Below, piece by piece: positions 6,035 to 64,000 of a stretch of 64,000 bases of DNA. Location: positions 12,750-76,749 of the forward strand of contig CANPZU010000002.1 of the NCBI GenBank assembly GCA_947588825.1, in the 5' to 3' direction. Origin of the DNA: an uncultured Clostridia bacterium. GTDB lineage: Bacteria > Bacillota > Clostridia > Oscillospirales > CAG-272. Position 1 is the stretch's first letter. Each line of letters opens with the position of its first letter. The translations under genes were made by a program, and so were the position numbers. Below the pieces are notes generated by a model, which was not told the DNA's origin, ran no database searches, and saw nothing but the letters and a program-made list of their open reading frames with translations.

Positions 6035-6185
6035 TTTTATCACAACTCCCCACATATTTTTTCACTTTATGATAACATATTTTTTTCCGCCTTTCAAGCC
6101 TTTATACGAAAATTTGTGACCAATATTCATCTCCCGCACCGTCGGATGAAAAAACGTCCCGTTGGTCAAAATATATCGCCCTTTC

Positions 6186-6263
6186 GGGGAGCTTTTTGAA
6201 AAAAGCCTCCCCGAACCCCTGCAAAAACTTTAAAACTATAAAGACAGCCGCGTTTGTGCGACC
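6186..6263 (+). repeat. Repeat module A, copy 1
   Basis: GGGGAGCTTTTTGAAAAAAGCCTCCCC hairpin, GAACCCCTGCAAAAACTTTAAAACT, then a CCGCGTTTGTGCG hairpin. Near-identical at 12804, 57172 and, inverted, at 21245 and 21337. Confidence 0.85.
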
Positions 6264-6270
6264 TTTTCTG

Positions 6271-6453
6271 CTTTATAAACCTTAGAGTGGAATCTTCATT
6301 AGCGCGGACGCTCTGCCGCCCTTCGGGCGTGCAGAGTCAGGAGAAAGGGGTACGGCGTCGGGGGAAAGCGAGCTTTCACCGAGTCGTCGTACCCCTTTCT
6401 CCTGACCTTGCGGGGCAAAGCCCCGCAAGGCCCGCCGCGCCGCACTACGGTTT
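6271..6453 (+). repeat. Repeat module C, copy 1 (three consecutive stem-loops)
   Basis: CTTTATAAACCTTAGAG...CGCACTACGGTTT. Homologous to 57257-57440 (+) and 21056-21239 (-). Confidence 0.85.
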
Positions 6454-6466
6454 CTTTATTTAATTT

Positions 6467-6690
6467 GTTTCCCCGGCTTTTCAAAAGCCGGCGGGTCGAG
6501 GGCAGAGCCCCGTCGCGCCCGCAGGCGCGAAAGGCCCTTAAATAAGCGATGCACGCAAATAAGGCATCCGTGCCGCGCTGCGGTTTACTTTGTTTGTTTC
6601 CCCGGCTTTTTATAAAGCCGGCGACGGTCAAGGGCGAGGAGCCCTTGTCGCGCCCGCAGGCGCGAAAGGCCCATTAATAAGCGATGCGTA
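6467..6690 (+). repeat. Repeat module B, two tandem units
   Basis: Each unit has a CCGGCTTTT.AAAAGCCGG hairpin, a GGGC..GCCC hairpin and a CGCGCC-CGCA-GGCGCG hairpin. Unit cores lie at 6467-6533 and 6596-6668. Confidence 0.85.
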
Positions 6691-6696
6691 CAAAAT

Positions 6697-6740
6697 AAAA
6701 GCAAGAGCGCTCATCCTTACAGACGGGCGTTCCTGCATTT
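6697..6740 (-). terminator. Probable intrinsic terminator after pnp
   Basis: The minus strand reads GCAGGAACGC-N16-GCGCUCUUGC followed by UUUUAUUUUG. The stem is imperfect. Confidence 0.45.
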
Positions 6741-10774: not shown

Positions 10775-10793
10775 CCGTCTTTTCCTTTCTATC

Positions 10794-10824
10794 CTTTCTT
10801 TTCTTTCTTTTCTTTCTTTTCTTT
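10794..10824. repeat. 9-bp tandem repeat x3.5 (CTTTCTTTT)
   Basis: Read directly, immediately upstream of the lipoprotein start. Confidence 0.6.
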
Positions 10825-12704: not shown

Positions 12705-12803
12705 ATATAGCAAATTTCCTTTCAAATAGTATTCCTTCTCAGTATATGCCGTATCCGACCGTCGGGATACATTTCGAAAAAACGGATCGCTCGGTTTTTT
12801 TTC

Positions 12804-12917
12804 GGGGAGCTTTTTGAAAAAAGCCTCCCCGAACCCCTGCAAAAACTTTAAAACTGCTAATACGGCCGCGTTTGTGCGGCCCCTTCGCGCCCGCAGGCGC
12901 GAAATCCCCTAAATAAG
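12804..12917 (+). repeat. Truncated repeat element: module A joined directly to the last hairpin of module B
   Basis: 12804-12881 matches module A. 12882-12917 reads CCTTCGCGCCCGCAGGCGCGAAATCCCCTAAATAAGG, which is the B 3' end. Confidence 0.8.
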
Positions 12918-12948
12918 GCTTCATACAAAAGCGCGGTGTCGAATTATA

Positions 12949-17539: not shown

Positions 17540-18982
17540 TCAACGGTTTGCTCTTCTCTTTGTAGCGACCACGGCAAGACCGAGAGTCGATACAAGCGCG
17601 AGAACGATTATTGCAAGAGAAGCGTCGCCTGTTTCTGCGGGGCCTTGGCCGCCTGTACCTGTGCCTTCACCGCCTGTACCTGTGCCTTCGCCGCCTGTAC
17701 CTGTGCCTTCACCGCCTGTGGTGGGAGGAGTGATGGTATAAGCCGTTCCGTTATACTCTACACCGTCTGCGAGCGCGTCATATGTCACGTCACCGGTAAA
17801 CATAGCTATCTCACTAATCTGGAAGTAGCCGCCGTTGCCTTTGTTGGCAGTGATTTCTATGGTGTAGTAAGCGTAAGCCTTCGTAGCGTTCAGATTGAAA
17901 ATGAAATACATTTCACTAACAGCACTAATCTTAGCGTCGGTTGTTTCGAACACCTTAACGCCTTTTTCGGTCGCGGAGTCGGAGCCGTAAACTGTAAATG
18001 CTTTGGGAGCTCTGCCCGGGTAATCTTTATCATCGTGAGTTCCAAAGGCTATGTACTTCGGAGCACCCGCGGCAGTATCGGCCTTGAAGGTGATTGTAAC
18101 ACCCGCTTCAGGGAAATTACCCTCAATCTTTTTGGAGAGATCGCCGTCAAACAAAACCTTTCTGTCTTTATCTTTATCGAATTTGTCCGTTGTGCCGGTA
18201 GTAACTACTTCTGCATCGGACAGAGTCACCTTGGTACCATTTTTAGGAGCAAAGACAGTGGAAGAATTGATTGTCGCTGAAAAGCAGGTAGCGTTGTCGT
18301 TTGCGTCGGTATAAGTGAACTCAAGCAGAGAATAAGTTGTAACATAGTTTTCAGCCTTAAATATGTACAGCTTATCGCCGGCGTCGGTAGTCTTTATGTC
18401 GTCTACAACAAACTGGCCCTGATTGTCCCTATCTGATCTACCCTTTTTGCATTCGTCGTGAGTTTCGCCAACGACCGTCGTGCCTTTGGCAAGCTTGGGA
18501 TCGGTGTTGAAGATAATCTCGGCGGTTACGGTTTTGGCCTTGGTGTCAGCCGTTACCTTTGCATACTTTGTTCCCCATGCGGCATATTGAGAGGTAAATG
18601 TTTTCTCATAAACCTCGCCGTTGGGCATTGTAAGCTTAAGCTTGTTTTGGTCGTCCTTGGTCAAATCGGCGCCGACAATACCAAGCTGCAAAGAACTCTT
18701 GGTAATGTTATTATTGTCTCTGAGCTGGCAATGCGCGTAGCCGAGGTAACCGATATTCCAATACGCGGGTTTGCCGTTTACTTCGACCTTGATGTCCTCG
18801 AGCTTTTCGGCAATGGTCTTGTTAAAGTGCACGTCGCCCTCGACAAATCCGTGGTCTGCCTTGACGTTCTCGCTTGTGGGTGCAAGAGCGGGATCGTCAG
18901 CGGCAAACGCTGAAAGCGCACAAGGAACAATCATGATACATGCAAGAAGCATAGCAAGAATTGTTTTGAATGATCTTTTCAT
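17540..18982 (-). CDS. Secreted cell-surface protein with C-terminal sortase-type anchor (PAETG + TM + KRRANR)
   Basis: The N-terminal signal peptide is MKRSFKTILAMLLACIMIVPCALSAFA. The C-terminus is (GGEGTGT)x3..GPAETGDASLAIIVLALVSTLGLAVVATKRRANR. The central region resembles a discoidin/F5-8-type-C carbohydrate-binding module (tentative). Confidence 0.6.
   Translation of the reverse strand: MKRSFKTILAMLLACIMIVPCALSAFAADDPALAPTSENVKADHGFVEGDVHFNKTIAEKLEDIKVEVNGKPAYWNIGYLGYAHCQLRDNNNITKSSLQLGIVGADLTKDDQNKLKLTMPNGEVYEKTFTSQYAAWGTKYAKVTADTKAKTVTAEIIFNTDPKLAKGTTVVGETHDECKKGRSDRDNQGQFVVDDIKTTDAGDKLYIFKAENYVTTYSLLEFTYTDANDNATCFSATINSSTVFAPKNGTKVTLSDAEVVTTGTTDKFDKDKDRKVLFDGDLSKKIEGNFPEAGVTITFKADTAAGAPKYIAFGTHDDKDYPGRAPKAFTVYGSDSATEKGVKVFETTDAKISAVSEMYFIFNLNATKAYAYYTIEITANKGNGGYFQISEIAMFTGDVTYDALADGVEYNGTAYTITPPTTGGEGTGTGGEGTGTGGEGTGTGGQGPAETGDASLAIIVLALVSTLGLAVVATKRRANR
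17649..17720 (-). repeat. In-frame 21-bp tandem repeat x3 encoding GGEGTGT
   Basis: ccgcctgtacctgtgccttca repeated at 17649, 17670 and 17691. Confidence 0.85.
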
Positions 18983-20011: not shown

Positions 20012-20824
20012 ATGAAAAATAAAAAACCTGTCCGTACTTTCAAAAATGAGGCTTCCCGGTTCTGCAAAAAGAGCGTGTACCTGCTCTCCTTTGCCTCTTC
20101 CGCAATACTTTTGCTTCTGTCCGATCTGTATCTGCTCTTTATAGCTAACTTCGGCACAACCTCGGTTTTTATAACAATATATTATTACTTTACCCAACTT
20201 TTGTCCGTCTCTGCGTTTTTCGCCCTCGTCTCAATATCGATATATACCTACTTCGCGGGTAATATGCCCGCCTTCGCACATTCGCTCACAATGAACGCCC
20301 TCTCCTCGGTCTTCGTCTCCGTCCTCGCAAACTCGCTTATCATCTGGCTCCTTGCCTTCGCCGATCAAAACCTCGACCTCCCCTTTTCCGTCAGTAACTA
20401 TTCTTTGACCGAGCTTAACGAAAACGGCCTTATCTATATTATGTCTATGTCCTTCATGAGCGTTCTCTCTCTCTTTCTCGTCGTTCTTGTCTCGTTTCTC
20501 ATTTTAAGAACGGTTAAACGTAAATACGTCAAAAATTATACCGACCTCTCACTTGACGCCCTTGCAAACAGCTCCAGTCCTGATTTCCCCTTGAAAACCC
20601 CCGCCGCCGTCTTTGCCGGCTGCTTCGCACTCGTCAGCTTTCTCTTTCAGGCCCTCGATACCTTGACAACCGTAACCGATATCGGAACCCCTGAATACGT
20701 AAACGACTATATTTACCTCATGACTCCTTACTTTATGTTGGTTATATATACCCTCGCGGGTTACTTCGTCATGCAGTACTTTATAAACTACTTCGCTAAA
20801 AAAACGCTCGACCTTTCAAAATAA
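20012..20824 (+). CDS. Hypothetical polytopic membrane protein (27 nt downstream of lexA)
   Basis: 270-aa ORF with several long hydrophobic segments. No recognisable family, and no clear RBS before the ATG at 20012. Confidence 0.45.
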   Translation: MKNKKPVRTFKNEASRFCKKSVYLLSFASSAILLLLSDLYLLFIANFGTTSVFITIYYYFTQLLSVSAFFALVSISIYTYFAGNMPAFAHSLTMNALSSVFVSVLANSLIIWLLAFADQNLDLPFSVSNYSLTELNENGLIYIMSMSFMSVLSLFLVVLVSFLILRTVKRKYVKNYTDLSLDALANSSSPDFPLKTPAAVFAGCFALVSFLFQALDTLTTVTDIGTPEYVNDYIYLMTPYFMLVIYTLAGYFVMQYFINYFAKKTLDLSK

Positions 20825-20839
20825 CGGCCGGGCGCTTTT

Positions 20840-21055
20840 GTTTGTAGCTGCAAATATGAGATTTCGCGCCTGCGGGCGCGACGGGGCTCTGCCCTCGACC
20901 CGCCGGCTTTTGAAAAGCCGGGGAAATAAATAGAACAAACCGTAGTGCAGCGCGCATGTCGCTTGTTGAGGAATCTTTCGCGCCTGCGGGCGCGACAAGG
21001 GCTCCTCGCCCTTGACCGTCGCCGGCTTTTAAAAAGCCGGAGAAATAAATAGAGT
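20840..21055 (-). repeat. Repeat module B, two tandem units (inverted orientation)
   Basis: TTTCGCGCCTGCGGGCGCG..CCGGCTTTTGAAAAGCCGG at 20862-20927 and 20976-21045 is the reverse complement of 6467-6690. Confidence 0.85.
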
Positions 21056-21239
21056 AAACCGTAGTGCGGCGCGGCGGCCTTGCGTGGGCAAAGCCTACGC
21101 AAGGTCAGAGCAGGAGGGTACGGCGTCGGGGGAAAGCGAGCTTTCACCGAGTCGCCGTACCCTTCTGCACTGACTCTGCACGCCCGAAGGGCGGCAGAGC
21201 GTCCGCGCTAATGAAGATTCTGCTCTAAGGTTTATAAAG
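21056..21239 (-). repeat. Repeat module C, inverted copy (with flipped hairpin loops)
   Basis: Reverse complement of the 6271-6453 and 57257-57440 flanks. The central loops are in the same + strand orientation as the direct copies. Confidence 0.85.
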
Positions 21240-21244
21240 TGAAG

Positions 21245-21322
21245 GGCCGCACAAACGCGGCCGTCTTAGTAGTTCTGAAGTTTTTGAAGGGGTTCGGGGA
21301 GGCTTTTTTCAAAAAGCTCCCC
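21245..21322 (-). repeat. Repeat module A, inverted copy a
   Basis: GGCCGCACAAACGCGGCC..GGGGAGGCTTTTTTCAAAAAGCTCCCC. Confidence 0.85.
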
Positions 21323-21336
21323 GAGAAGAGCAAAGA

Positions 21337-21415
21337 GGCCGCACGAACGCGGCCGTCTTGGCAGTTTTGAAGTTTTTGAAGGGGTTCGGGGAGGCTTTTT
21401 TTCAAAAAGCTCCCC
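21337..21415 (-). repeat. Repeat module A, inverted copy b (abuts the ldh stop codon)
   Basis: GGCCGCACGAACGCGGCC..GGGGAGGCTTTTTTTCAAAAAGCTCCCC. It ends 8 nt from the ldh stop. Confidence 0.85.
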
Positions 21416-21422
21416 GAGACGA

Positions 21423-22376
21423 TCAAAGTTTAAGTCCGGCGAAGGTATCTCTAAGGAGGGTACAGGAGCGGTCGAACTTATCGAGTTCAGACTGAGTCAT
21501 AGAGATAGGGAGGACTTTTTGAGCGCCGTTACGGCTGACTATTGTCGGGACACCGACAAAGACGCCGCCCGACTGGCCGAACTCGCCGCGGAGCATTGAG
21601 GAGACGGTGAGGATACTGCGTTCATCGCCGAAAATAGCGCGAGTGATTCTAACGAGTGACATACCGATACCGTAATAGGTAGCCTTTTTAGCGTCGATGA
21701 TTTTTTGAGCGGCGGAGCGGACTTCAAAGGCAATATTTTCAAGGTCGTCTATACTGAAGTTACTGATTTCGGTTGTATACTCAAGCACGGGTTTAGTAGC
21801 GATAAGGGCCTGTGACCAAGGCACGAACTCGCTGTCACCATGTTCGCCCATCACATAGGCGTGTACGTTACGCGGGTCGACCGAGAAGAAGTCGCCGAGG
21901 AGGTAGCGCAGTCTTGCGGTATCGAGGGTAGTACCTGAGCCGATCACATGTTTAGGATTAAAGCCGGAGAGCTCGCAGGTAATGCGGGTCATTATATCAA
22001 CGGGGTTAGTAGCGACGAGAAAGATACCGTTAAAATCAGAATCCACCACGGGGTTCACGACCGAGCGAAACACCTCGGTATTGCGCTGAAGCAAATCAAG
22101 GCGGGACTCGCCCGGTTTTTGAGCCACGCCGGCGCAGATAACGACGATATCGGCGTCCGCGCAGTCGCTGTACTTACCCGCGTAAATTTTCATATGCGAG
22201 CCTGAAAACGCGAGGCCGTGGCTTAGGTCCATAGCCTCTCCGGCGGCTCTTTTTTCATCTATATCGATAAGCACAAGTTCATCGCACGCGTTCTGATTGA
22301 GCAGTGCGTAAGCGTAGCTCATACCGACCATACCCGCGCCGACCAAAACCACTTTTCTGTTATCTCTTGACATCAT
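21423..22376 (-). CDS. ldh: L-lactate dehydrogenase
   Basis: ..KVVLVGAGMVGMSYAYAL.. (Rossmann GxGxxG), ..ATNPVD.., ..GEHGDSE... Confidence 0.92.
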   Translation of the reverse strand: MMSRDNRKVVLVGAGMVGMSYAYALLNQNACDELVLIDIDEKRAAGEAMDLSHGLAFSGSHMKIYAGKYSDCADADIVVICAGVAQKPGESRLDLLQRNTEVFRSVVNPVVDSDFNGIFLVATNPVDIMTRITCELSGFNPKHVIGSGTTLDTARLRYLLGDFFSVDPRNVHAYVMGEHGDSEFVPWSQALIATKPVLEYTTEISNFSIDDLENIAFEVRSAAQKIIDAKKATYYGIGMSLVRITRAIFGDERSILTVSSMLRGEFGQSGGVFVGVPTIVSRNGAQKVLPISMTQSELDKFDRSCTLLRDTFAGLKL

Positions 22377-26821: not shown

Positions 26822-26875
26822 GGCGCCTCCAAAGCAAAACGCACCCAAAAGGGTGCATTTTGCTTTGGAGGCGCC
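26822..26875 (-). terminator. 25-bp hairpin at the end of the tRNA operon; one arm includes the last 10 nt of tRNA-Cys
   Basis: The minus-strand RNA reads GGCGCCUCCAAAGCAAAAUGCACCC-UUUU-GGGUGCGUUUUGCUUUGGAGGCGCC. The single non-Watson-Crick position is U.G only on the minus strand. Confidence 0.6.
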
Positions 26876-26939
26876 ACCCGGAATCGGACCGGGGATAAAG
26901 GTTTTGCAGACCTCTGCCTTACCGCTTGGCTATGGCGCC
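26866..26939 (-). tRNA. tRNA-Cys (GCA), CCA-encoded, discriminator U73
   Basis: GGCGCCATAGCCAAGCGGTAAGGCAGAGGTCTGCAAAACCTTTATCCCCGGTCCGATTCCGGGTGGCGCCTCCA. Cloverleaf read by eye. Confidence 0.9.
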
Positions 26940-26978
26940 TTTTTTGACAAGAACCACGCAACGCGTGGTTCTTAAAAA

Positions 26979-27054
26979 TGGAGCGGATTACGGGGCTCGA
27001 ACCCGCCACCTCCACCTTGGCAAGGTGGCGCTCTACCAAATGAGCTAAATCCGC
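26979..27054 (-). tRNA. tRNA-Gly (GCC), CCA-encoded
   Basis: GCGGATTTAGCTCATTTGGTAGAGCGCCACCTTGCCAAGGTGGAGGTGGCGGGTTCGAGCCCCGTAATCCGCTCCA. Confidence 0.9.
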
Positions 27055-27092
27055 ATAAGACAGCCGTCGCGCGTCTTAATGACCGCAAACGG

Positions 27093-27168
27093 TGGTGCCT
27101 CCGGTCGGAATCGAACCAACGACACGGGGATTTTCAGTCCCCTGCTCTACCAACTGAGCTACAGAGGC
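27093..27168 (-). tRNA. tRNA-Phe (GAA), CCA-encoded
   Basis: GCCTCTGTAGCTCAGTTGGTAGAGCAGGGGACTGAAAATCCCCGTGTCGTTGGTTCGATTCCGACCGGAGGCACCA. Confidence 0.9.
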
Positions 27169-27196
27169 ATAGAAGTTAAATCTGCTAAAACAAAAA

Positions 27197-27273
27197 TGGC
27201 GACCCGGATGGGGCTCGAACCCACGACCTCTAGCGTGACAGGCTAGCGCTCTAACCAACTGAGCTACCAGGCC
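27197..27273 (-). tRNA. tRNA-Asp (GTC), CCA-encoded
   Basis: GGCCTGGTAGCTCAGTTGGTTAGAGCGCTAGCCTGTCACGCTAGAGGTCGTGGGTTCGAGCCCCATCCGGGTCGCCA. Confidence 0.9.
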
Positions 27274-27279
27274 ATATTA

Positions 27280-27355
27280 TGGTGGGAACAATAGGGCTCG
27301 AACCTATGACCCTCTGCTTGTAAGGCAGATGCTCTCCCAGCTGAGCTATGCTCCC
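27280..27355 (-). tRNA. tRNA-Val (TAC), CCA-encoded
   Basis: GGGAGCATAGCTCAGCTGGGAGAGCATCTGCCTTACAAGCAGAGGGTCATAGGTTCGAGCCCTATTGTTCCCACCA. Confidence 0.9.
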
Positions 27356-47702: not shown

Positions 47703-48922
47703 GCACTTTAACCTTAAAAGATGCAAGAGCGCCCTTTGCGCTGCTGTCTGAACAAAATGCGGCTCTCTTCTCAGAGCTTGCCACCCCCTGCTACGTCATA
47801 GACGAGCGCGCCCTTATCCGCAACTGCGATATTCTCGCCTCTCTTGCCAAAAACACGGGAGCAAAGATCCTGCTCGCTCAAAAGGCGTTCTCAAATTACG
47901 ACTTTTACCCCCTCCTCTCAAACTATCTTGCGGGCACCGAGGCAAGCGGTCTTTATGAAGCAAGGCTCGGCGCCGAACAGATGAAGGGCAAAGAGACGCA
48001 CGTCTTTTGCGCCGCATACGGCGAAAAAGAATTTGATGAAATACTTAAATACGCCGACCACATAGTCTTCAACTCGCCCGCAGAGCTGAAAAGGTTCGGT
48101 CCGGCCGCAAAAAGCGCAAAAAAAAGCGTGGGGCTCCGCATAAATCCCGAGTGCTCGACCCAAAAAAGCGCTCACGCGATTTATGACCCCTGCGCCGTCG
48201 GAAGCCGCCTCGGCGTTACGCTGAAAAATTGGCGTGAGCAAATGAGCGAATCGGAAGTACGTTTGCTCGACGGGCTCCATTTTCATACCCTTTGCGAACA
48301 GGATTCAATAGACCTTGAGATCACTCTTCGCGCCGTTGAGGAAAAATTCGGCTTCGTACTTTCGGACATGAAATGGCTCAATATGGGCGGCGGACACCAT
48401 ATTACCCGCCCGGGATATGACATAAAAAGACTTGAAAATTGCATTACCCGCGTAAAGGAGCGCTATAATGCAGAAGTCTACCTCGAACCCGGCGAGGCGG
48501 TCGCGCTTAACGCCGGATATCTGCTCTCCCGCGTGCGCGATATCGTAAAGAACGGCGGGTACGACACAGCCATCCTTGACACAAGCGCGGCATGCCATAT
48601 GCCCGACGTACTCGAGATGCCCTACACTCCCCCGCTTTACGGAGCGTGTGAGGAAAAGCCCGCCTTTGTATACCGCCTCGCCGGCCCGACCTGCCTTGCC
48701 GGCGACGTTATCGGAACCTACGGCTTTGATCGCGAGCTGCGTCGGGACAGCCTGCTCATATTCGGAGATATGGCAATATACACCACATGTAAAAACAATA
48801 CCTTTAACGGAATGCCCCTGCCCGATATCTGGCGCCTCGGCGAAAACGGCGCGCTCTTTCGACTCACGTCCTTTTCTTACGAGGACTTTAAGTCAAGACT
48901 CGGACGCCGTGACACAATTTGA
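47699..48922 (+). CDS. nspC: Carboxynorspermidine/carboxyspermidine decarboxylase
   Basis: ATGA overlap with the upstream gene. ..TPCYVIDE..L..N.., ..AQKAFS.. and ..LNMGGG.. fit an alanine-racemase-fold decarboxylase. Confidence 0.8.
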   Translation: MSTLTLKDARAPFALLSEQNAALFSELATPCYVIDERALIRNCDILASLAKNTGAKILLAQKAFSNYDFYPLLSNYLAGTEASGLYEARLGAEQMKGKETHVFCAAYGEKEFDEILKYADHIVFNSPAELKRFGPAAKSAKKSVGLRINPECSTQKSAHAIYDPCAVGSRLGVTLKNWREQMSESEVRLLDGLHFHTLCEQDSIDLEITLRAVEEKFGFVLSDMKWLNMGGGHHITRPGYDIKRLENCITRVKERYNAEVYLEPGEAVALNAGYLLSRVRDIVKNGGYDTAILDTSAACHMPDVLEMPYTPPLYGACEEKPAFVYRLAGPTCLAGDVIGTYGFDRELRRDSLLIFGDMAIYTTCKNNTFNGMPLPDIWRLGENGALFRLTSFSYEDFKSRLGRRDTI

Positions 48923-48924
48923 AA

Positions 48925-48958
48925 GGACGGCCGCGCAAACGCGGCCGTCCCGATTTTT
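48925..48958 (+). terminator. Intrinsic terminator after nspC
   Basis: GGACGGCCGCG-caaa-CGCGGCCGTCC followed by CGATTTTT. Confidence 0.8.
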
Positions 48959-49057: not shown

Positions 49058-49900
49058 TCACATTTCAGACAAAATATAATCAATATACTCTCCGGCGACG
49101 TTTATGTCGGTATTTGCGTAGACCATGCGCGAACCCACGACGTCTTCCACTTCGTTAAATACGGCGCGCTCAAAATCATAGACAAAATCGACGCCGACAA
49201 AATCGGGCTCAAGCGCGTCGCAGAGCTTTTGCACGGCGATATGCTCCTCGGCGGAGAGGGTATGGGGTACGGCGCGACCTCCAAGACAAAAATTACTGCG
49301 AAAATCAGTATCCGAGACGCGGGTAAACGAGCACAGGATTCTTTTGCCCATGACGTATACACGGGTATCTCTGCCGACCCTTGAGGCGCATTTTTGGATA
49401 AGCATGTCTCTTCCCGCAAAATGCGGAAGTAATTTTTCGTATTCGGACGGGTCCCTTGCGAGAAAAACCTTTTCGCCTCCCTTGCCGTCGATAGGCTTAA
49501 GCACGCAGGGAAAGAAGGGCGACATGGGAAAAGGCGAGTTTTTTTTGACGAAAATGGTATCCATAACCGGGAGATTCAGGCTCAGGGCGAGCTGATAGGT
49601 CAGCATTTTATCGCCGCACACACGAGAGACTCTTGAGCTGTTGAAAACTCTCATACCCATAAGCTCAAGGTGATGCGAGAGAATGTAATTTTGCGCGCGC
49701 ACGACGGCAAAGTCGGCCGCGCCGAGCACTCTGCCGTTACAAAGCAAGACGAAAGCGCCTCCTGACAGAGCGGGGGTCAATTCTTCCTCAATCAAAAGAG
49801 TCATAATTACACTGCGCTTATTTGCTTGAGATATAAGTTCATTTATAAACCAGGCGTTTCTTTGCGCCTCTTTTTTGCTGTATATCAGATACGCGGTCAT
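49058..49900 (-). CDS. RimK-family ATP-grasp ligase (paralog 1)
   Basis: 280 aa with ..RVFNSSR...GDK.., ..VLKPIDGKGG..V.., ..DFRSNFCLGG.. and ..DFVGVDFV.. (RimK-like). Confidence 0.7.
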   Translation of the reverse strand: MTAYLIYSKKEAQRNAWFINELISQANKRSVIMTLLIEEELTPALSGGAFVLLCNGRVLGAADFAVVRAQNYILSHHLELMGMRVFNSSRVSRVCGDKMLTYQLALSLNLPVMDTIFVKKNSPFPMSPFFPCVLKPIDGKGGEKVFLARDPSEYEKLLPHFAGRDMLIQKCASRVGRDTRVYVMGKRILCSFTRVSDTDFRSNFCLGGRAVPHTLSAEEHIAVQKLCDALEPDFVGVDFVYDFERAVFNEVEDVVGSRMVYANTDINVAGEYIDYILSEM

Positions 49901-57094: not shown

Positions 57095-57137
57095 TATTAT
57101 AAAAAAATGAAGCTCAAAACGCTTTGAGCCCGATAAA

Positions 57138-57251
57138 CCGGCCGCGTTTGCGCGGCTCCTTCGCTCTTCTCGGGGAGCTTTTTGAAAAAAGCCTCCCCGA
57201 ACCCCTGCAAAAACTTTAAAACTGCCAAGACGGCCGCGTTTGTGCGGCTCC
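57138..57251 (+). repeat. Repeat module A, copy 4 (preceded by an extra GCCGCG-TTTG-CGCGGC hairpin)
   Basis: Near-identical to 6186-6263 and 12804-12881. Confidence 0.85.
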
Positions 57252-57256
57252 TTCGT

Positions 57257-57440
57257 TTTATAAACCTTAGAGCAGAATCTTCATTAGCGCGGCGAATGCT
57301 CTGTGCCCTTCGGGCGCAGAGTCAGGGCAAAAGGGTACGGCGTCGGGGGAAAGCGAGCTTTCACCGAGTCGCCGTACCCTTTTGCCCTGACCTTACGGCG
57401 GCAAAGCCGCCGCAAGGCACGCCGCGCCGCACTACGGTTT
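57257..57440 (+). repeat. Repeat module C, copy 4
   Basis: TTATAAACCTTAGAGCAGAATCTTCATTAGCGCGG...CGCACTACGGTTT. Confidence 0.85.
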
Positions 57441-57449
57441 ATACAGTTT

Positions 57450-57656
57450 GTTTCCCCCGCTTTTCAAAAGCCGGCGGGTCGAGGGCAGAGCCCCGTCGCG
57501 CCCGCAGGCGCGAAACACTCCTTAACAAGCCACGTGCGCGGTGCACTACGGCTTGTCTGATTTGTTTCCCCGGCTTTTCAAAAGCCGGCGGGTCGAGGGC
57601 AGAGCCCCGTCGCGCCCGCAGGCGCGAAACACTTTTTAACAAGCGACGTGCGGCGG
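57450..57656 (+). repeat. Repeat module B, two tandem units
   Basis: Cores at 57450-57515 and 57564-57630 are nearly identical to each other and to 6467-6533. Confidence 0.85.
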
Positions 57657-57689
57657 CAAACGCACAAAGTCCGCCCATACGGGGCAGAC
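57657..57689 (-). terminator. Intrinsic terminator after hsp20
   Basis: The minus strand reads GUCUGCCC-cgua-u-GGGCGGAC followed by UUUGUGCGUUU. Confidence 0.6.
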
Positions 57690-57700
57690 TTTGAGAAAGC

Positions 57701-61309: not shown

Positions 61310-64000
61310 TCAGGGCAGCGGATATTCCTGCGGGAAATAGACGTACATCAGCAAATAGATGGCGTCGTCCTCGTTTGTCTCTCCGTTGCCGTCAAAATCG
61401 CAGTCGACTAAAAGCGGGTATTCCTCAGGAAAATAGGTGTACATCATAAGATATACCGAATCGGAATCGTCAACCTTGTAGTTTTGATCGACGTCCCCCG
61501 CAAGATATTCAAGCTTTTCAACATAGGTGTCGCGGTAAGAGAGGCGGCAGTCGGGACAACTGTGAAGAGTGTAGCCTTCCTCCCAAAGAGTGGGCGGCAC
61601 AACCGTGCTTTCAAAGCTATGACCCCGCGCGGCTGTCTTCATCGCCTCAAAATAATCGCAGCCTTCCTCTTGGCACTGCCTTATCAGCACGCCGTTTTCG
61701 GTGCAGCCGACATTTTGAAGGATGATCGGGTCTGACAGGTCGTGATCACTTGAGCTTACAAAGATTTCAATTTCACCGTACATGCTTTCATCGTTTTTCT
61801 CGTAAAAGCGCACCTTCACGTATCCAAAGGAAACGCCGGTCAGTAGACCGTCATCGCTCAAATTCGCGCTGCCGGTCATGTTTTTGCACTCCCAAACATA
61901 TTTCTTGTCGGGGTCGGCCCCTTCCACGCTTATTTGTATGCTTTGCTCCGTTTTTACGGTATCGGATTCTGCATAAAGAGTGTAGCCGCCGGCATTCTTA
62001 CTTTCGCCCGCATAAAAGTCAAGCGACAAAGGTGCAAGGTCGCATACTACGCTGTTTCCCGCCTTGTCGGCAAGGTCAAGCGATGTAAGGCTCCACTTTC
62101 CCGACGCGCTGCCCTTTGGCAGGGTAAAGCTTATGTTATATAACCTCCACTCGCTCGCATTACCCTCAAAATACTCGGTATAGCTGTTTTCATGGTAAAT
62201 ACTGAGATAGTGCTCCTTGCCCGTCGGGTCGAGCAGACCGAGCGTCATTTTTTCAAGCCCGGACGCGTCGTCCCGCACAAAGAAGCCGATAGTCACGTCG
62301 GTCTGCGTTCCTCTCGGGTTCAAGCTTGAGCTGAACGCGCCGAGAATAATGTTTTCTCTTGAAAGCTCGGGCGCTTCGCTATCCGAGTACTCGCTCTCAA
62401 ACTCAAAGCTCGGCGCATTTTGCGAAAGGTCATCTGAAACGAAGGTGATCTCGGATTCGTTGCCGGCCATGTCACGTAAAACAAGACGATCTACTATGTA
62501 TTCACCCGATCTCATGTATTTTGTGAACGTGAAAGTGATTACTCCCTCTCCCGTTTCATTGTCAAATTCGCCGTACGCGCCAAAATGGTAGGCGGGGTCA
62601 TCGGCTTTTGATATCTCGCAGTACGCCTCGCTTATCCCCATGTCGTCAAATCCCTTGAAGCGCACATGAACATAAGTGAGCTCGTCCGTTTCTTCCCCTT
62701 CTTGCGTTTCTTCTCCTTCTTGCCCTTGAGTTTCTTCTCCCTCTTGAGTTTCTTCTCCTTTTGTACCGGCCTTTTCACTCGTCACCGTCAGGGAAGAGCT
62801 TTCGTATTCGGGAGCGTTTGTGTCATAAAGTAAATTGTCAATGTACAGCTCCCAGCCAAAGCCGTCGGAAGATACGGTCATTTGACTCTCGTCCTCGCAG
62901 CTAAGCTCGATCTCTTCACAGTGCCAGTAGCCCTTGCAGCTGTATCTGCTGAGCGTAATAACACCGCGCAGCACTAAATCTTCCCCGTCTGCGGGTGAAA
63001 GCCGCAGATCGTAAAACGTGTCGGCATCGCTGAATATCCTTATATACGCGCCGTCTACAAGATCGGCGCCGTTTGCCCGCGAGTCAAGCGTCAGAGTCAA
63101 TGTGACCTGCTTGTTCTCCTCCGGCGCTCCCGCGACCTTTATATCAAGTCCCGCAATAACGCTGCGTAAAGCAAGATCGGGATACAGGGAATAAACCTCA
63201 ACCTCGCCGCTTGAGCTTTCTTTGGTGCCGTATGCCCCGCCGTTCATTATAAAATCCTCGACAAAAGCGTATTTGTCGGGCGAGATCGCCTTAAGCTTGT
63301 TTGGCAGCATCACATAACACGCCATGGCGTTTGCAATATCCTCTGCGGGAGTTTGAACGTCGGAATACTCCTCTATAAGCTCACCCTCACTCGTCCATAT
63401 AAGCTCGTTCCCTTCTCCCCGCTCGCTGCGCCAGTGGCCGAGAGCTTGCCATTCTTCTTTGAAACTTTCCGAGAAAGTGTGCGCCCAAAACGCAATTGAT
63501 TTCAAATACAGCAAGTACCCAAGGCTTTCGTTTGAAGTAAGACCGCCGCCCTCAAAAGAAAGATCGCAAAATTCCATGTATCCCTGCTCGGCATACATGT
63601 AAAAAACAAACGGCTCGTCGGGATAAAGCGGATTTTGACCTCCGCTTGCCCTGCGCACAAGATATTTGAGATTCGGCGTCTCGTGAAAACCTTCGCTCTC
63701 CCTTGCAAAGAGCTCGAGAATCGCAAGCAGCTCTTGTGGCTTGAACTGCCCAAAGCAAATATCGCTCTCCTGCGTCGTGTCAGCCGTAAGGCTTTCATAA
63801 TCCTCGACTTTTATCGAGCAGCCGTACTTTATTTTAAGTAACTCGTCTATAAAGGAAATGTCCTCGCCGTATTTTGACGCGTAACGTATCAGCGCACCGT
63901 ACAGACCGCTTGAAAAATATTCGCCCTTCGGTGTCTCAAACACGCCCGCCCGCCGCGGCGCCTCCTCAAAAGCCGACGCGCTTATCTTTATAAGATCGAC
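61310..64000 (-). CDS. Large secreted protein with C-terminal dockerin-like duplicated Ca-binding segment (partial; open to window end)
   Basis: The C-terminus reads ..GDVDQNYKVDDSDSVYLMMYTYF..DFDGNGETNEDDAIYLLMYVYF.. The frame has no stop between 63943 and 64000, and the tracked 'M' is a GTG with no signal peptide. The true N-terminus therefore lies outside the window. Confidence 0.6.
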   Translation of the reverse strand, partial: VDLIKISASAFEEAPRRAGVFETPKGEYFSSGLYGALIRYASKYGEDISFIDELLKIKYGCSIKVEDYESLTADTTQESDICFGQFKPQELLAILELFARESEGFHETPNLKYLVRRASGGQNPLYPDEPFVFYMYAEQGYMEFCDLSFEGGGLTSNESLGYLLYLKSIAFWAHTFSESFKEEWQALGHWRSERGEGNELIWTSEGELIEEYSDVQTPAEDIANAMACYVMLPNKLKAISPDKYAFVEDFIMNGGAYGTKESSSGEVEVYSLYPDLALRSVIAGLDIKVAGAPEENKQVTLTLTLDSRANGADLVDGAYIRIFSDADTFYDLRLSPADGEDLVLRGVITLSRYSCKGYWHCEEIELSCEDESQMTVSSDGFGWELYIDNLLYDTNAPEYESSSLTVTSEKAGTKGEETQEGEETQGQEGEETQEGEETDELTYVHVRFKGFDDMGISEAYCEISKADDPAYHFGAYGEFDNETGEGVITFTFTKYMRSGEYIVDRLVLRDMAGNESEITFVSDDLSQNAPSFEFESEYSDSEAPELSRENIILGAFSSSLNPRGTQTDVTIGFFVRDDASGLEKMTLGLLDPTGKEHYLSIYHENSYTEYFEGNASEWRLYNISFTLPKGSASGKWSLTSLDLADKAGNSVVCDLAPLSLDFYAGESKNAGGYTLYAESDTVKTEQSIQISVEGADPDKKYVWECKNMTGSANLSDDGLLTGVSFGYVKVRFYEKNDESMYGEIEIFVSSSDHDLSDPIILQNVGCTENGVLIRQCQEEGCDYFEAMKTAARGHSFESTVVPPTLWEEGYTLHSCPDCRLSYRDTYVEKLEYLAGDVDQNYKVDDSDSVYLMMYTYFPEEYPLLVDCDFDGNGETNEDDAIYLLMYVYFPQEYPLP
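62686..62766 (-). repeat. In-frame acidic tandem repeat (about 18 bp) encoding (G)EETQEG units
   Basis: gtttcttc[ct]cc[ct]tcttg is repeated about 4 times. The protein reads TKGEETQEGEETQGQEGEETQEGEETDE. Confidence 0.75.

Follow-up and report, generated by a model that had tools for sequence, protein, structure and literature searches.

A modular intergenic hairpin repeat of an uncultured Clostridia bacterium, with covarying palindromes that are inverted in place in one copy

The window analysed here, a stretch of 64,000 nucleotides from an uncultured Clostridia bacterium, is ordinary chromosome that carries pnp, an Rrf2-family regulator gene, asnB, ldh, an rnf operon, polyamine genes, birA and hsp20. 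Four intergenic loci in these 64 kb hold copies of one composite element, which is a modular, hairpin-rich repeat of this Clostridia (Ruminococcaceae-like) organism (Table 1). The element is composed of four types of module: A, which spans about 92 nt, has two hairpins and is present once or twice; B, a conserved 36-nt core with one hairpin; C, a pair of adjacent near-perfect palindromes; and D, which spans 114-135 nt, has three hairpins and is present twice, in two subtypes. The number and presence of the modules vary among the loci, as in a mosaic, and three of the four loci contain the 71-nt hairpin of module C. Copy 3 lies between two convergent genes, the second of them ldh-like, and copy 4 between the hsp20 stop codon and a terminator plus promoter upstream of birA. 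All six element copies that we have seen (four in the window, one in the relative L025 and one at the end of contig L046) follow a gene and turn their D side towards its stop codon. As the D side comes first downstream of genes and the copy 4 element is situated between a stop codon and a terminator-like hairpin, the element is probably transcribed, and judged by this arrangement it would be part of a 3' UTR.

Table 1. Positions in the window of the composite element, its hairpins and other features, with units on other contigs and the scores of covariance model R1.
Feature	Position	Strand	Description
Composite element, copy 1	6181-6700	+	A, B, C, D1, D2; between pnp stop codon (6756) and Rrf2-family gene promoter
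Composite element, copy 2	12799-12931	+	Shortened: A joined directly to end of D unit, without module C
Composite element, copy 3	20830-21420	-	A, A, B, C, D1, D2
Composite element, copy 4	57117-57656	+	Partial A, A, B, C, D1, D2
Repeat of 83 nt, three copies	6331-6413; 21099-21181; 57316-57398		Returned by repeat finding
Central hairpin, copy 1	6336-6406	+	Arms 6336-6357 and 6385-6406
Foot GTCAG, copy 1	6336-6340		
Variable duplex, copy 1	6341-6348/6394-6401		
Inner stem, copy 1	6349-6357/6385-6393		
Interior, copy 1	6358-6384		27 nt
Central hairpin, copy 3	21104-21174	+	Interior 21126-21152
Central hairpin, copy 4	57321-57391	+	Arms 57321-57342 and 57370-57391
Variable duplex, copy 4	57326-57333 and 57379-57386		
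Neighbouring hairpin, copy 1	6406-6430	+	11-bp stem CCTTGCGGGGC/GCCCCGCAAGG, loop AAA
Neighbouring hairpin, copy 3	21078-21104	+	Arms CCTTGCGTGGGC/GCCTACGCAAGG, one G.T
Neighbouring hairpin, copy 4	57391-57417	+	12-bp stem CCTTACGGCGGC/GCCGCCGCAAGG, one A.C, loop AAA
Model R1, copy 1			+ strand 99.2 bits, - strand 58.4 bits
Model R1, copy 3			+ strand 99.0 bits, - strand 56.9 bits
Model R1, copy 4			+ strand 102.6 bits, - strand 65.1 bits
D units in the window	6431-6700; 20830-21078; 57418-57656		
D units on other contigs	L046:15488-15706; L007:1-200		
Related d2-d3 units	L025:13323-13420; L055:1280-1510; L059; L056-L058		
Locus of the L036 strain variant	57145-57535		A, B, C and D1 gone
Gene beside copy 3	20012-20824	+	Convergent with the ldh-like gene
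ldh-like gene beside copy 3	21423-22376	-	
Terminator-like hairpin at copy 4	57131-57110	-	
Near-consensus promoter at copy 4	57069-57041		Beyond the element
Open frames in the element	57182-57694	+	
Open frames in the element	6299-6631; 20788-21147	-	
Solitary hairpin GGACGGCCGCGTTTGCGCGGCCGTCC, then TTTC	48915-48950	-	Downstream of RimK-like gene 49058-49900
Imperfect inverted repeat, 17 nt	6107-6178		CGAAAATTTGTGACCAA / TTGGTCAAAATATATCG; predicted Rrf2-family gene promoter at 6097-6069
tRNA gene cluster	26869-27355	-	Five tRNA genes
Short in-frame tandem repeats and CTTT-rich run	17642-17719; 62688-62760; 10785-10824		Within or beside ORFs 17540-18982 and 61310-63943

Several smaller features of the element and its surroundings were recorded. 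The two D subtypes, …GGTCGAGGGCAGAGCCCCGTCG… and …GACGGTCAAGGGCGAGGAGCCCTTGTCG…, are distinguished by a compensated pair and by a bulge that is paired in, and at the copy 1 locus the second D unit differs between two contigs (L006 and L007). At the copy 4 locus, a strain variant (L036, Logan SRR27728183) joins GGCCGCGTTTGCGCGG to TGCACTACGG, a deletion across approximately 6-8 nt of microhomology that makes the presence of the inner modules polymorphic. The a2 hairpin was considered as the terminator of the upstream gene and rejected, its terminator-like orientation being on the other strand. The solitary hairpin downstream of the RimK-like gene is nearly the same as a2, and a2 may be derived from an ordinary terminator. 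An imperfect inverted repeat that may be an operator lies in front of the Rrf2-family gene, some 10-80 nt upstream of its predicted promoter. Elsewhere the window contains a cluster of tRNA genes, and short tandem repeats with periods of 21-24 nt together with a CTTT-rich run, associated with ORFs to which no function is assigned.

The central hairpin of module C, present in three copies, is 71 nt long and consists of 22-bp arms around a 27-nt interior. In copy 1 the arms read GTCAG-GAGAAAGG-GGTACGGCG / CGTCGTACC-CCTTTCTC-CTGAC, and the inner stem holds one G.T. The arms of copy 4 are complementary at 22 of 22 positions, with GGCAAAAG/CTTTTGCC as the variable duplex, and in copy 3 this duplex is AGCAGGAG/CTTCTGCA with one G.T and one A.A. 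The 5-bp foot GTCAG/CTGAC is identical in all three hairpins and the 9-bp inner stem is GGTACGGCG/CGYCGTACC. When the copies are aligned by loop polarity, foot, inner stem and interior together show 0-1 differences in 55 positions; the 8-bp mid-stem duplex shows 5-11 differences in 16, with the pairing kept. Four pairs of the central hairpin have both bases altered, including a swap of G:C to C:G, two are changed to G.U and one is broken, and 98.9% of the cells are paired in comparison to 39-48% when the partners are slid. Adjoining it is the neighbouring hairpin of 25-27 nt with the foot CCTT/AAGG, which in copy 1 has base 6406 in common with the central hairpin. Between the copies, two of its pairs are changed on both sides, and a symmetric 1-bp indel in both arms separates copy 1 from copies 3 and 4.

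These hairpins had been described in a sequence-only reading of the same DNA, and every hairpin sequence that it quoted was found where it had been placed. Its claims that the 8-nt segment of the central hairpin varies from copy to copy yet stays paired, and that the neighbouring hairpin behaves in the same way, are borne out by the counts given above. Similarly, it had observed that the wobbles and mismatches do not favour one strand, and we counted three G.T, one A.C and one A.A on the + strand of the window, a mixed polarity. Its caution that neither the polarity nor the molecule (RNA, or single-stranded or cruciform DNA) can be decided from these copies was upheld. As RNA or as DNA, either strand has a folding z-score of -7.5 to -11 relative to shuffles, and the complementarity of the arms within each copy is far above chance. 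The covariation score observed for the central hairpin was reached by 6 of 500 shuffles, which we estimate may be near the floor for three rows, and that of the neighbouring hairpin, also with three rows, by 74 of 500. As there are only three copies, covariation across copies cannot attain meaningful significance. Rfam at the gathering score returned tRNAs only and no match to the element, and by E-value the matches were limited to generic long-hairpin miRNAs (27-33 bits against cut-offs of 73-168). The earlier statement that the structure, rather than the sequence, is maintained thus stood in part: the arms do co-vary, and conserved blocks alternate with a block that only pairs, but the step from there to a selected structure is insecure with three copies and with the hairpins of copy 3 flipped.

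The opposite orientation of the composite element in copy 3 was absent from the earlier reading. For modules A, B and D of copy 3, an alignment with copies 1 and 4 is obtained on the - strand only; its 27-nt interior and the AAA loop of its neighbouring hairpin read as copies 1 and 4 on the + strand. Relative to the element, the interior of copy 3 is identical to the others at 27 of 27 positions as the reverse complement and at 10 of 27 otherwise. As the interior is identical to its own reverse complement at only 10 of 27 positions, point mutation does not explain the difference of copy 3. A covariance model (R1) was made from the loop-oriented alignment of the hairpin copies, and its scores on both strands are listed in Table 1. 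Immediately beyond the foot, the imperfect flanks (GCAGA ... CCTTGC) retain the orientation of the element in copy 3, so that the breakpoints of the inversion lie inside the perfectly paired arms. The neighbouring loop of copy 3 is AAA on the + strand and TTT in the orientation of the element. As this loop is inverted and the order of central and then neighbouring hairpin is unchanged, two separate in-place inversions have occurred, and each palindrome of copy 3 has been turned round where it stands while its flanks have not.

The same flipped state of copy 3 was found in two contigs from separate samples (L038, ERZ27059539; L039, ERZ27249221) that enter the locus from the D side. Copies 1 and 4 were also constant in other samples: module C of copy 1 is identical in L006-L008, and a contig from ENA (L035) equals copy 4. 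Heterogeneity of the flips within a population was not seen at any locus across the assemblies compared. Flips were likewise absent from the shorter or imperfect hairpins a1, a2, d1, d2 and d3 in the copies examined; only the central and the neighbouring palindrome, whose perfect arms are the longest (22 bp and 11-12 bp), are seen flipped. The flip of copy 3 excludes a fold that must keep one polarity with respect to the element around it.

Additionally, we searched for copies of module C beyond the window. Scans of the GTDB species representatives with two core patterns and of JGI metagenomes with one core pattern gave only chance matches in coding regions, pattern scans of IMG/VR gave no module C, only unrelated hairpins and distant D-like units, and blastn against plasmid and phage collections gave no match. 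Model R1 detected no diverged copies beyond the known ones across 219 kb of sequence, and neither a solitary module C nor a B-D junction without C was found. Relatives were reached through their PNPase homologues (L022, L025, L027 and L028, the last two being uninformative); the one with 94% PNPase identity (L022) showed no element in 22 kb, and the one with 88% (L025) showed one D-like unit; module C was absent from the pnp regions of these closest relatives. By its PNPase homologues, the organism belongs with uncultured MAGs of the Clostridia/Ruminococcaceae-like kind. Contigs of the same species gave the same four loci and one new contig end with D only (L046), and no new module C. The short-read metagenome contigs of this species (L006-L013, L029-L045) end inside the element, Logan unitigs where they meet their first hairpin of module A or D, and SPAdes contigs within C or D.

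Long open frames of 110-170 aa run through the element, and such frames have been deposited publicly as hypothetical proteins. The 170-aa ORF across copy 4, used as a protein query, had one match (P0001), the 110-aa minus-strand ORF matched P0123 in a representative protein library, and a concatenated six-frame protein query had no match. P0001 and P0123, both NCBI-derived, are translations of copies that are distinct from all copies in the window and are known at the protein level only. Read back from its amino acids, P0001 implies a putative unflipped copy with a further complementary variable duplex, approximately GGCAGGAA/TTCCTGCC. Orthology of P0001 to the copy 3 locus was considered and rejected, the tail alignment being weak and containing a stop. 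The translation of P0123 reads '...PCAGKAYARSGQKGTATR' and implies, with the same qualification, a flipped neighbour beside an unflipped central hairpin; such a mixed state would mean that the central and neighbouring hairpins flip independently.

Units related to d2-d3 (AAAGGGC…GCCCTTT GGTCGC-NNN-CGCA-NNN-GCGAAA) were found in a relative and in unrelated IMG/VR contigs (Table 1), sometimes arranged in tandem with a period of 101 nt. The stems of d3 covary around a conserved CGCA loop, and there is no Rfam match; d3 may resemble the hairpin of type I-C CRISPR repeats. As D-like units occur in L025 and in unrelated IMG/VR contigs, module D is part of a wider family that is unannotated.

On balance we consider it somewhat probable that copying of one arm from the other at the DNA level is the main reason why the arms stay complementary. 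During replication or repair the palindrome would fold back as a single-stranded DNA hairpin or a cruciform, and a polymerase that briefly switches template inside the palindrome would copy one arm from the other. Such copying would homogenise the arms and turn a point change or an indel into a 'compensated' pair or a symmetric indel in one event, and with both switch points within the arms the spacer would be inverted. The foot, the inner stem and the interior would be held by constraint at the level of the sequence or by concerted evolution between the copies, and the 8-bp segment would need only to pair. Template switching has been shown to give multi-base compensatory changes with loop inversions (PMC8794818) and homogenisation of the arms with spacer inversion (PMC8604942), and the footprints of template switches in quasi-palindromes comprise spacer inversion, joint compensatory changes and symmetric stem indels (PMC8794818; PMC8604942; PMC7202029). 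In copy 3, also in L038 and L039, the spacer is inverted, the breakpoints are in the complementary arms and the flanks are unflipped; this in-place inversion is the signature of arm copying and favours a strong DNA-level component. Like the quasi-palindromes in those studies, the hairpins described here also show joint compensatory changes, symmetric stem indels and a stronger effect with longer arms. However, those studies placed the events on phylogenies of rRNA, miRNA and yeast genes, whereas here they are read from paralogous repeat copies outside any tree, three known as DNA and two through their translations, and the double changes would be single events.

The turnover of the variable duplex is in line with arm copying. 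Its paired positions differ between copies at 5-11 of 16, as against 4-8 of 10 for the unpaired a2/B linker, with 0-2 differences in the neighbouring blocks; the variable pairs thus differ as much as the linkers, which is expected if pairs turn over near the rate of single sites. Some mismatches have remained (copy 3 has two, copy 1 and the neighbouring hairpin of copy 4 have one each), which indicates that homogenisation is not continuous. Against arm copying, the conserved blocks beside the variable block also fit purifying selection on a hairpin with a tip and foot that are recognised by a protein, and the uniform flip state of each locus in the assemblies compared counts against it too. 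Against a purely mutational account, all the hairpins have one polarity on the + strand; this polarity could be functional and the flips could have been selected. Selection for a hairpin of either polarity may well act on top of arm copying. For any role in the cell, what matters is probably that the hairpin is stable, in whichever polarity, and the candidates would be an RNA barrier in the 3' UTR or between cistrons, a processing or RNase III-type site, a DNA structure or a protein site. As arm-to-arm copying yields double changes and symmetric indels in single events, covariation alone is not proof of selection on RNA. The sequence-only reading had itself raised homogenisation by arm copying as an alternative; the signature of spacer inversion has now been found for it in copy 3, and selection and templated homogenisation are not discriminated.

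Classical selection for structure is a real possibility, though a rather unlikely one as the main cause. It would act on RNA hairpins (3' UTR or intercistronic) or single-stranded DNA hairpins that are compensated stepwise through wobble pairs, and the flip of copy 3 would be a rare neutral accident, tolerated since nothing but the stability of the stem counts. The four fully compensated central pairs with G.U intermediates at two pairs agree with this account, as do the very stable folding on both strands, the strong conservation of foot, inner stem and interior, the position of all six copies in the same orientation downstream of a gene with copy 4 probably transcribed, and the D-module hairpins of relatives, which keep their CGCA loops and differ in their stems. 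However, stems under such selection should evolve more slowly than linkers, and here the variable pairs differ as much. A matching indel in two arms together with two or three independent spacer inversions is improbable by point mutation. The mixed polarity of the wobbles and the missing Rfam family match also count against it, and three copies give no significance.

It is unlikely that the palindromes are a REPIN-like mobile unit that is handled as single-stranded DNA by a Y1 (HUH) transposase encoded elsewhere and that lands, or is re-synthesised, either way at the B/D junction, with the variable duplexes marking sub-lineages of the unit. The architecture is of REPIN type, with two inverted conserved arms, a spacer, a 71-nt hairpin and compensatory changes (PMC3116915), both hairpin orientations occur, copy 2 is without module C, and the element is a mosaic in which the presence of the A-B-C-D1 block differs between strains (L036). 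However, the ORFs checked in the 64-kb window yielded no transposase or recombinase, there is no GTAG-type motif at the foot, no solitary module C and no C-less B-D junction, and the scanned public collections do not contain the family. At the junctions the flanking sequence agrees base for base whichever way the hairpin points, a pattern better explained by inversion in place than by re-insertion. In favour of a mobile unit, the single chromosomal-strand polarity of the hairpins recalls the transposition of single-stranded DNA, which shows a replication-linked orientation bias.

The loop polarity on the + strand is the same in 3 of 3 central and 3 of 3 neighbouring hairpins, even though the element of copy 3 is inverted, and it would be shared with a chance of 1/16 if the orientations were independent. 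As GC skew is negative over the whole window, all copies lie in one replichore. That the chromosome strand, rather than the direction in which the host element points, fixes the polarity, with the palindromes as strand-specific functional units, we regard as distinctly unlikely. The palindromes might then be single-stranded DNA hairpins in replication-coupled transposition, or in processing by an undescribed HUH-type enzyme of Clostridia; the 8-bp hypervariable duplex would be a spacer that only has to pair, and the flips would be selected corrections.

A phase-variable inverton with a site-specific recombinase, or an assembly artefact at the palindromes, is very improbable: inverted repeats do flank an inverted segment, but spacers of 27 nt and 3 nt are too short for the synapsis of an invertase, no recombinase gene was found among the window ORFs checked, the state of copy 3 is the same in the window and two independent assemblies with copies 1 and 4 constant across samples, and assembly k-mers and reads are typically longer than the 22-bp arms. 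As candidate classes for the element, an inverton, an integron attC site and a CRISPR array were rejected as a poor fit on spacing, on the conserved 'spacers' and on the lack of associated genes.

In kind, the module C element is a mosaic repeat resembling REP, REPIN and BIME or BOX elements, and its membership of the RAYT-REPIN system is not established. Like the REPINs, REPs and BIMEs of Pseudomonas and E. coli (PMC3116915, PMC2817692), it is extragenic and multi-copy, with inverted conserved arms and a long hairpin, and by being extragenic and repeated, with inverted arms around a spacer and compensatory changes, it agrees with the definition of REP/REPIN hairpins, in which compensatory changes are common (PMC3116915). 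As in REPINs and BIMEs, a less conserved segment is kept paired by compensatory changes, and the units form mosaic clusters of variable unit number between genes and in 3' UTRs. Unlike REPINs, the host belongs to a Firmicutes/Clostridia lineage, no RAYT was seen within the 64-kb window, and four unrelated types of module (A-D) are combined in place of alternating REPs. The tip, the inner stem and the 5-bp foot are conserved here and the variable block is in the middle of the stem, which also differs from REPINs. REP palindromes carry a conserved GTAG-type tetranucleotide at the 5' foot, whereas the feet here are GTCAG/CTGAC in the central and CCTT/AAGG in the neighbouring hairpin. REPs and REPINs also go with a cognate single-copy Y1 (HUH) transposase gene that the repeats flank, and they number tens to hundreds per genome; the sequence covered here comprised the window and about 40 kb of contigs from the same species.

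Pneumococcal BOX elements have the arrangement boxA-boxB(n)-boxC. By description rather than by sequence comparison, the element resembles them as a modular, non-coding intergenic repeat of a Firmicute with variable internal modules and strong predicted structure, and differs from them in the number of modules and the set of hairpins. Two loop orientations within a perfect inverted repeat and unchanged flanks are also known from hairpin-loop inversions in non-coding chloroplast DNA and from the flip/flop of parvovirus ITRs. Those cases concern other replicons and mechanisms (ITRs depend on rolling-hairpin replication), and there is no sign of a terminal hairpin here. Taken as a whole, the element is a real but fairly ordinary REP/BIME-like repeat, and the view that its structure is maintained is partly supported, with the data unable to tell selected hairpins from templated homogenisation.

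For genome scans, these results are a caution that covarying stems in dispersed palindromic repeats do not by themselves amount to a selected RNA fold: DNA-level arm copying gives the same picture as covariation, so covarying stems are insufficient evidence, and the in-place loop inversions described here point to such arm copying taking place. If the polarity were indeed linked to the strand, it could point to a REPIN-like system, a counterpart of REPIN-RAYT, in Firmicutes and thus outside Proteobacteria, and a polarity pattern that held genome-wide would imply a strand-linked function. For the uncultured Clostridia lineage itself, a previously undescribed family of modular hairpin repeats is documented, one that fragments short-read assemblies and appears in public databases as spurious 'proteins'.
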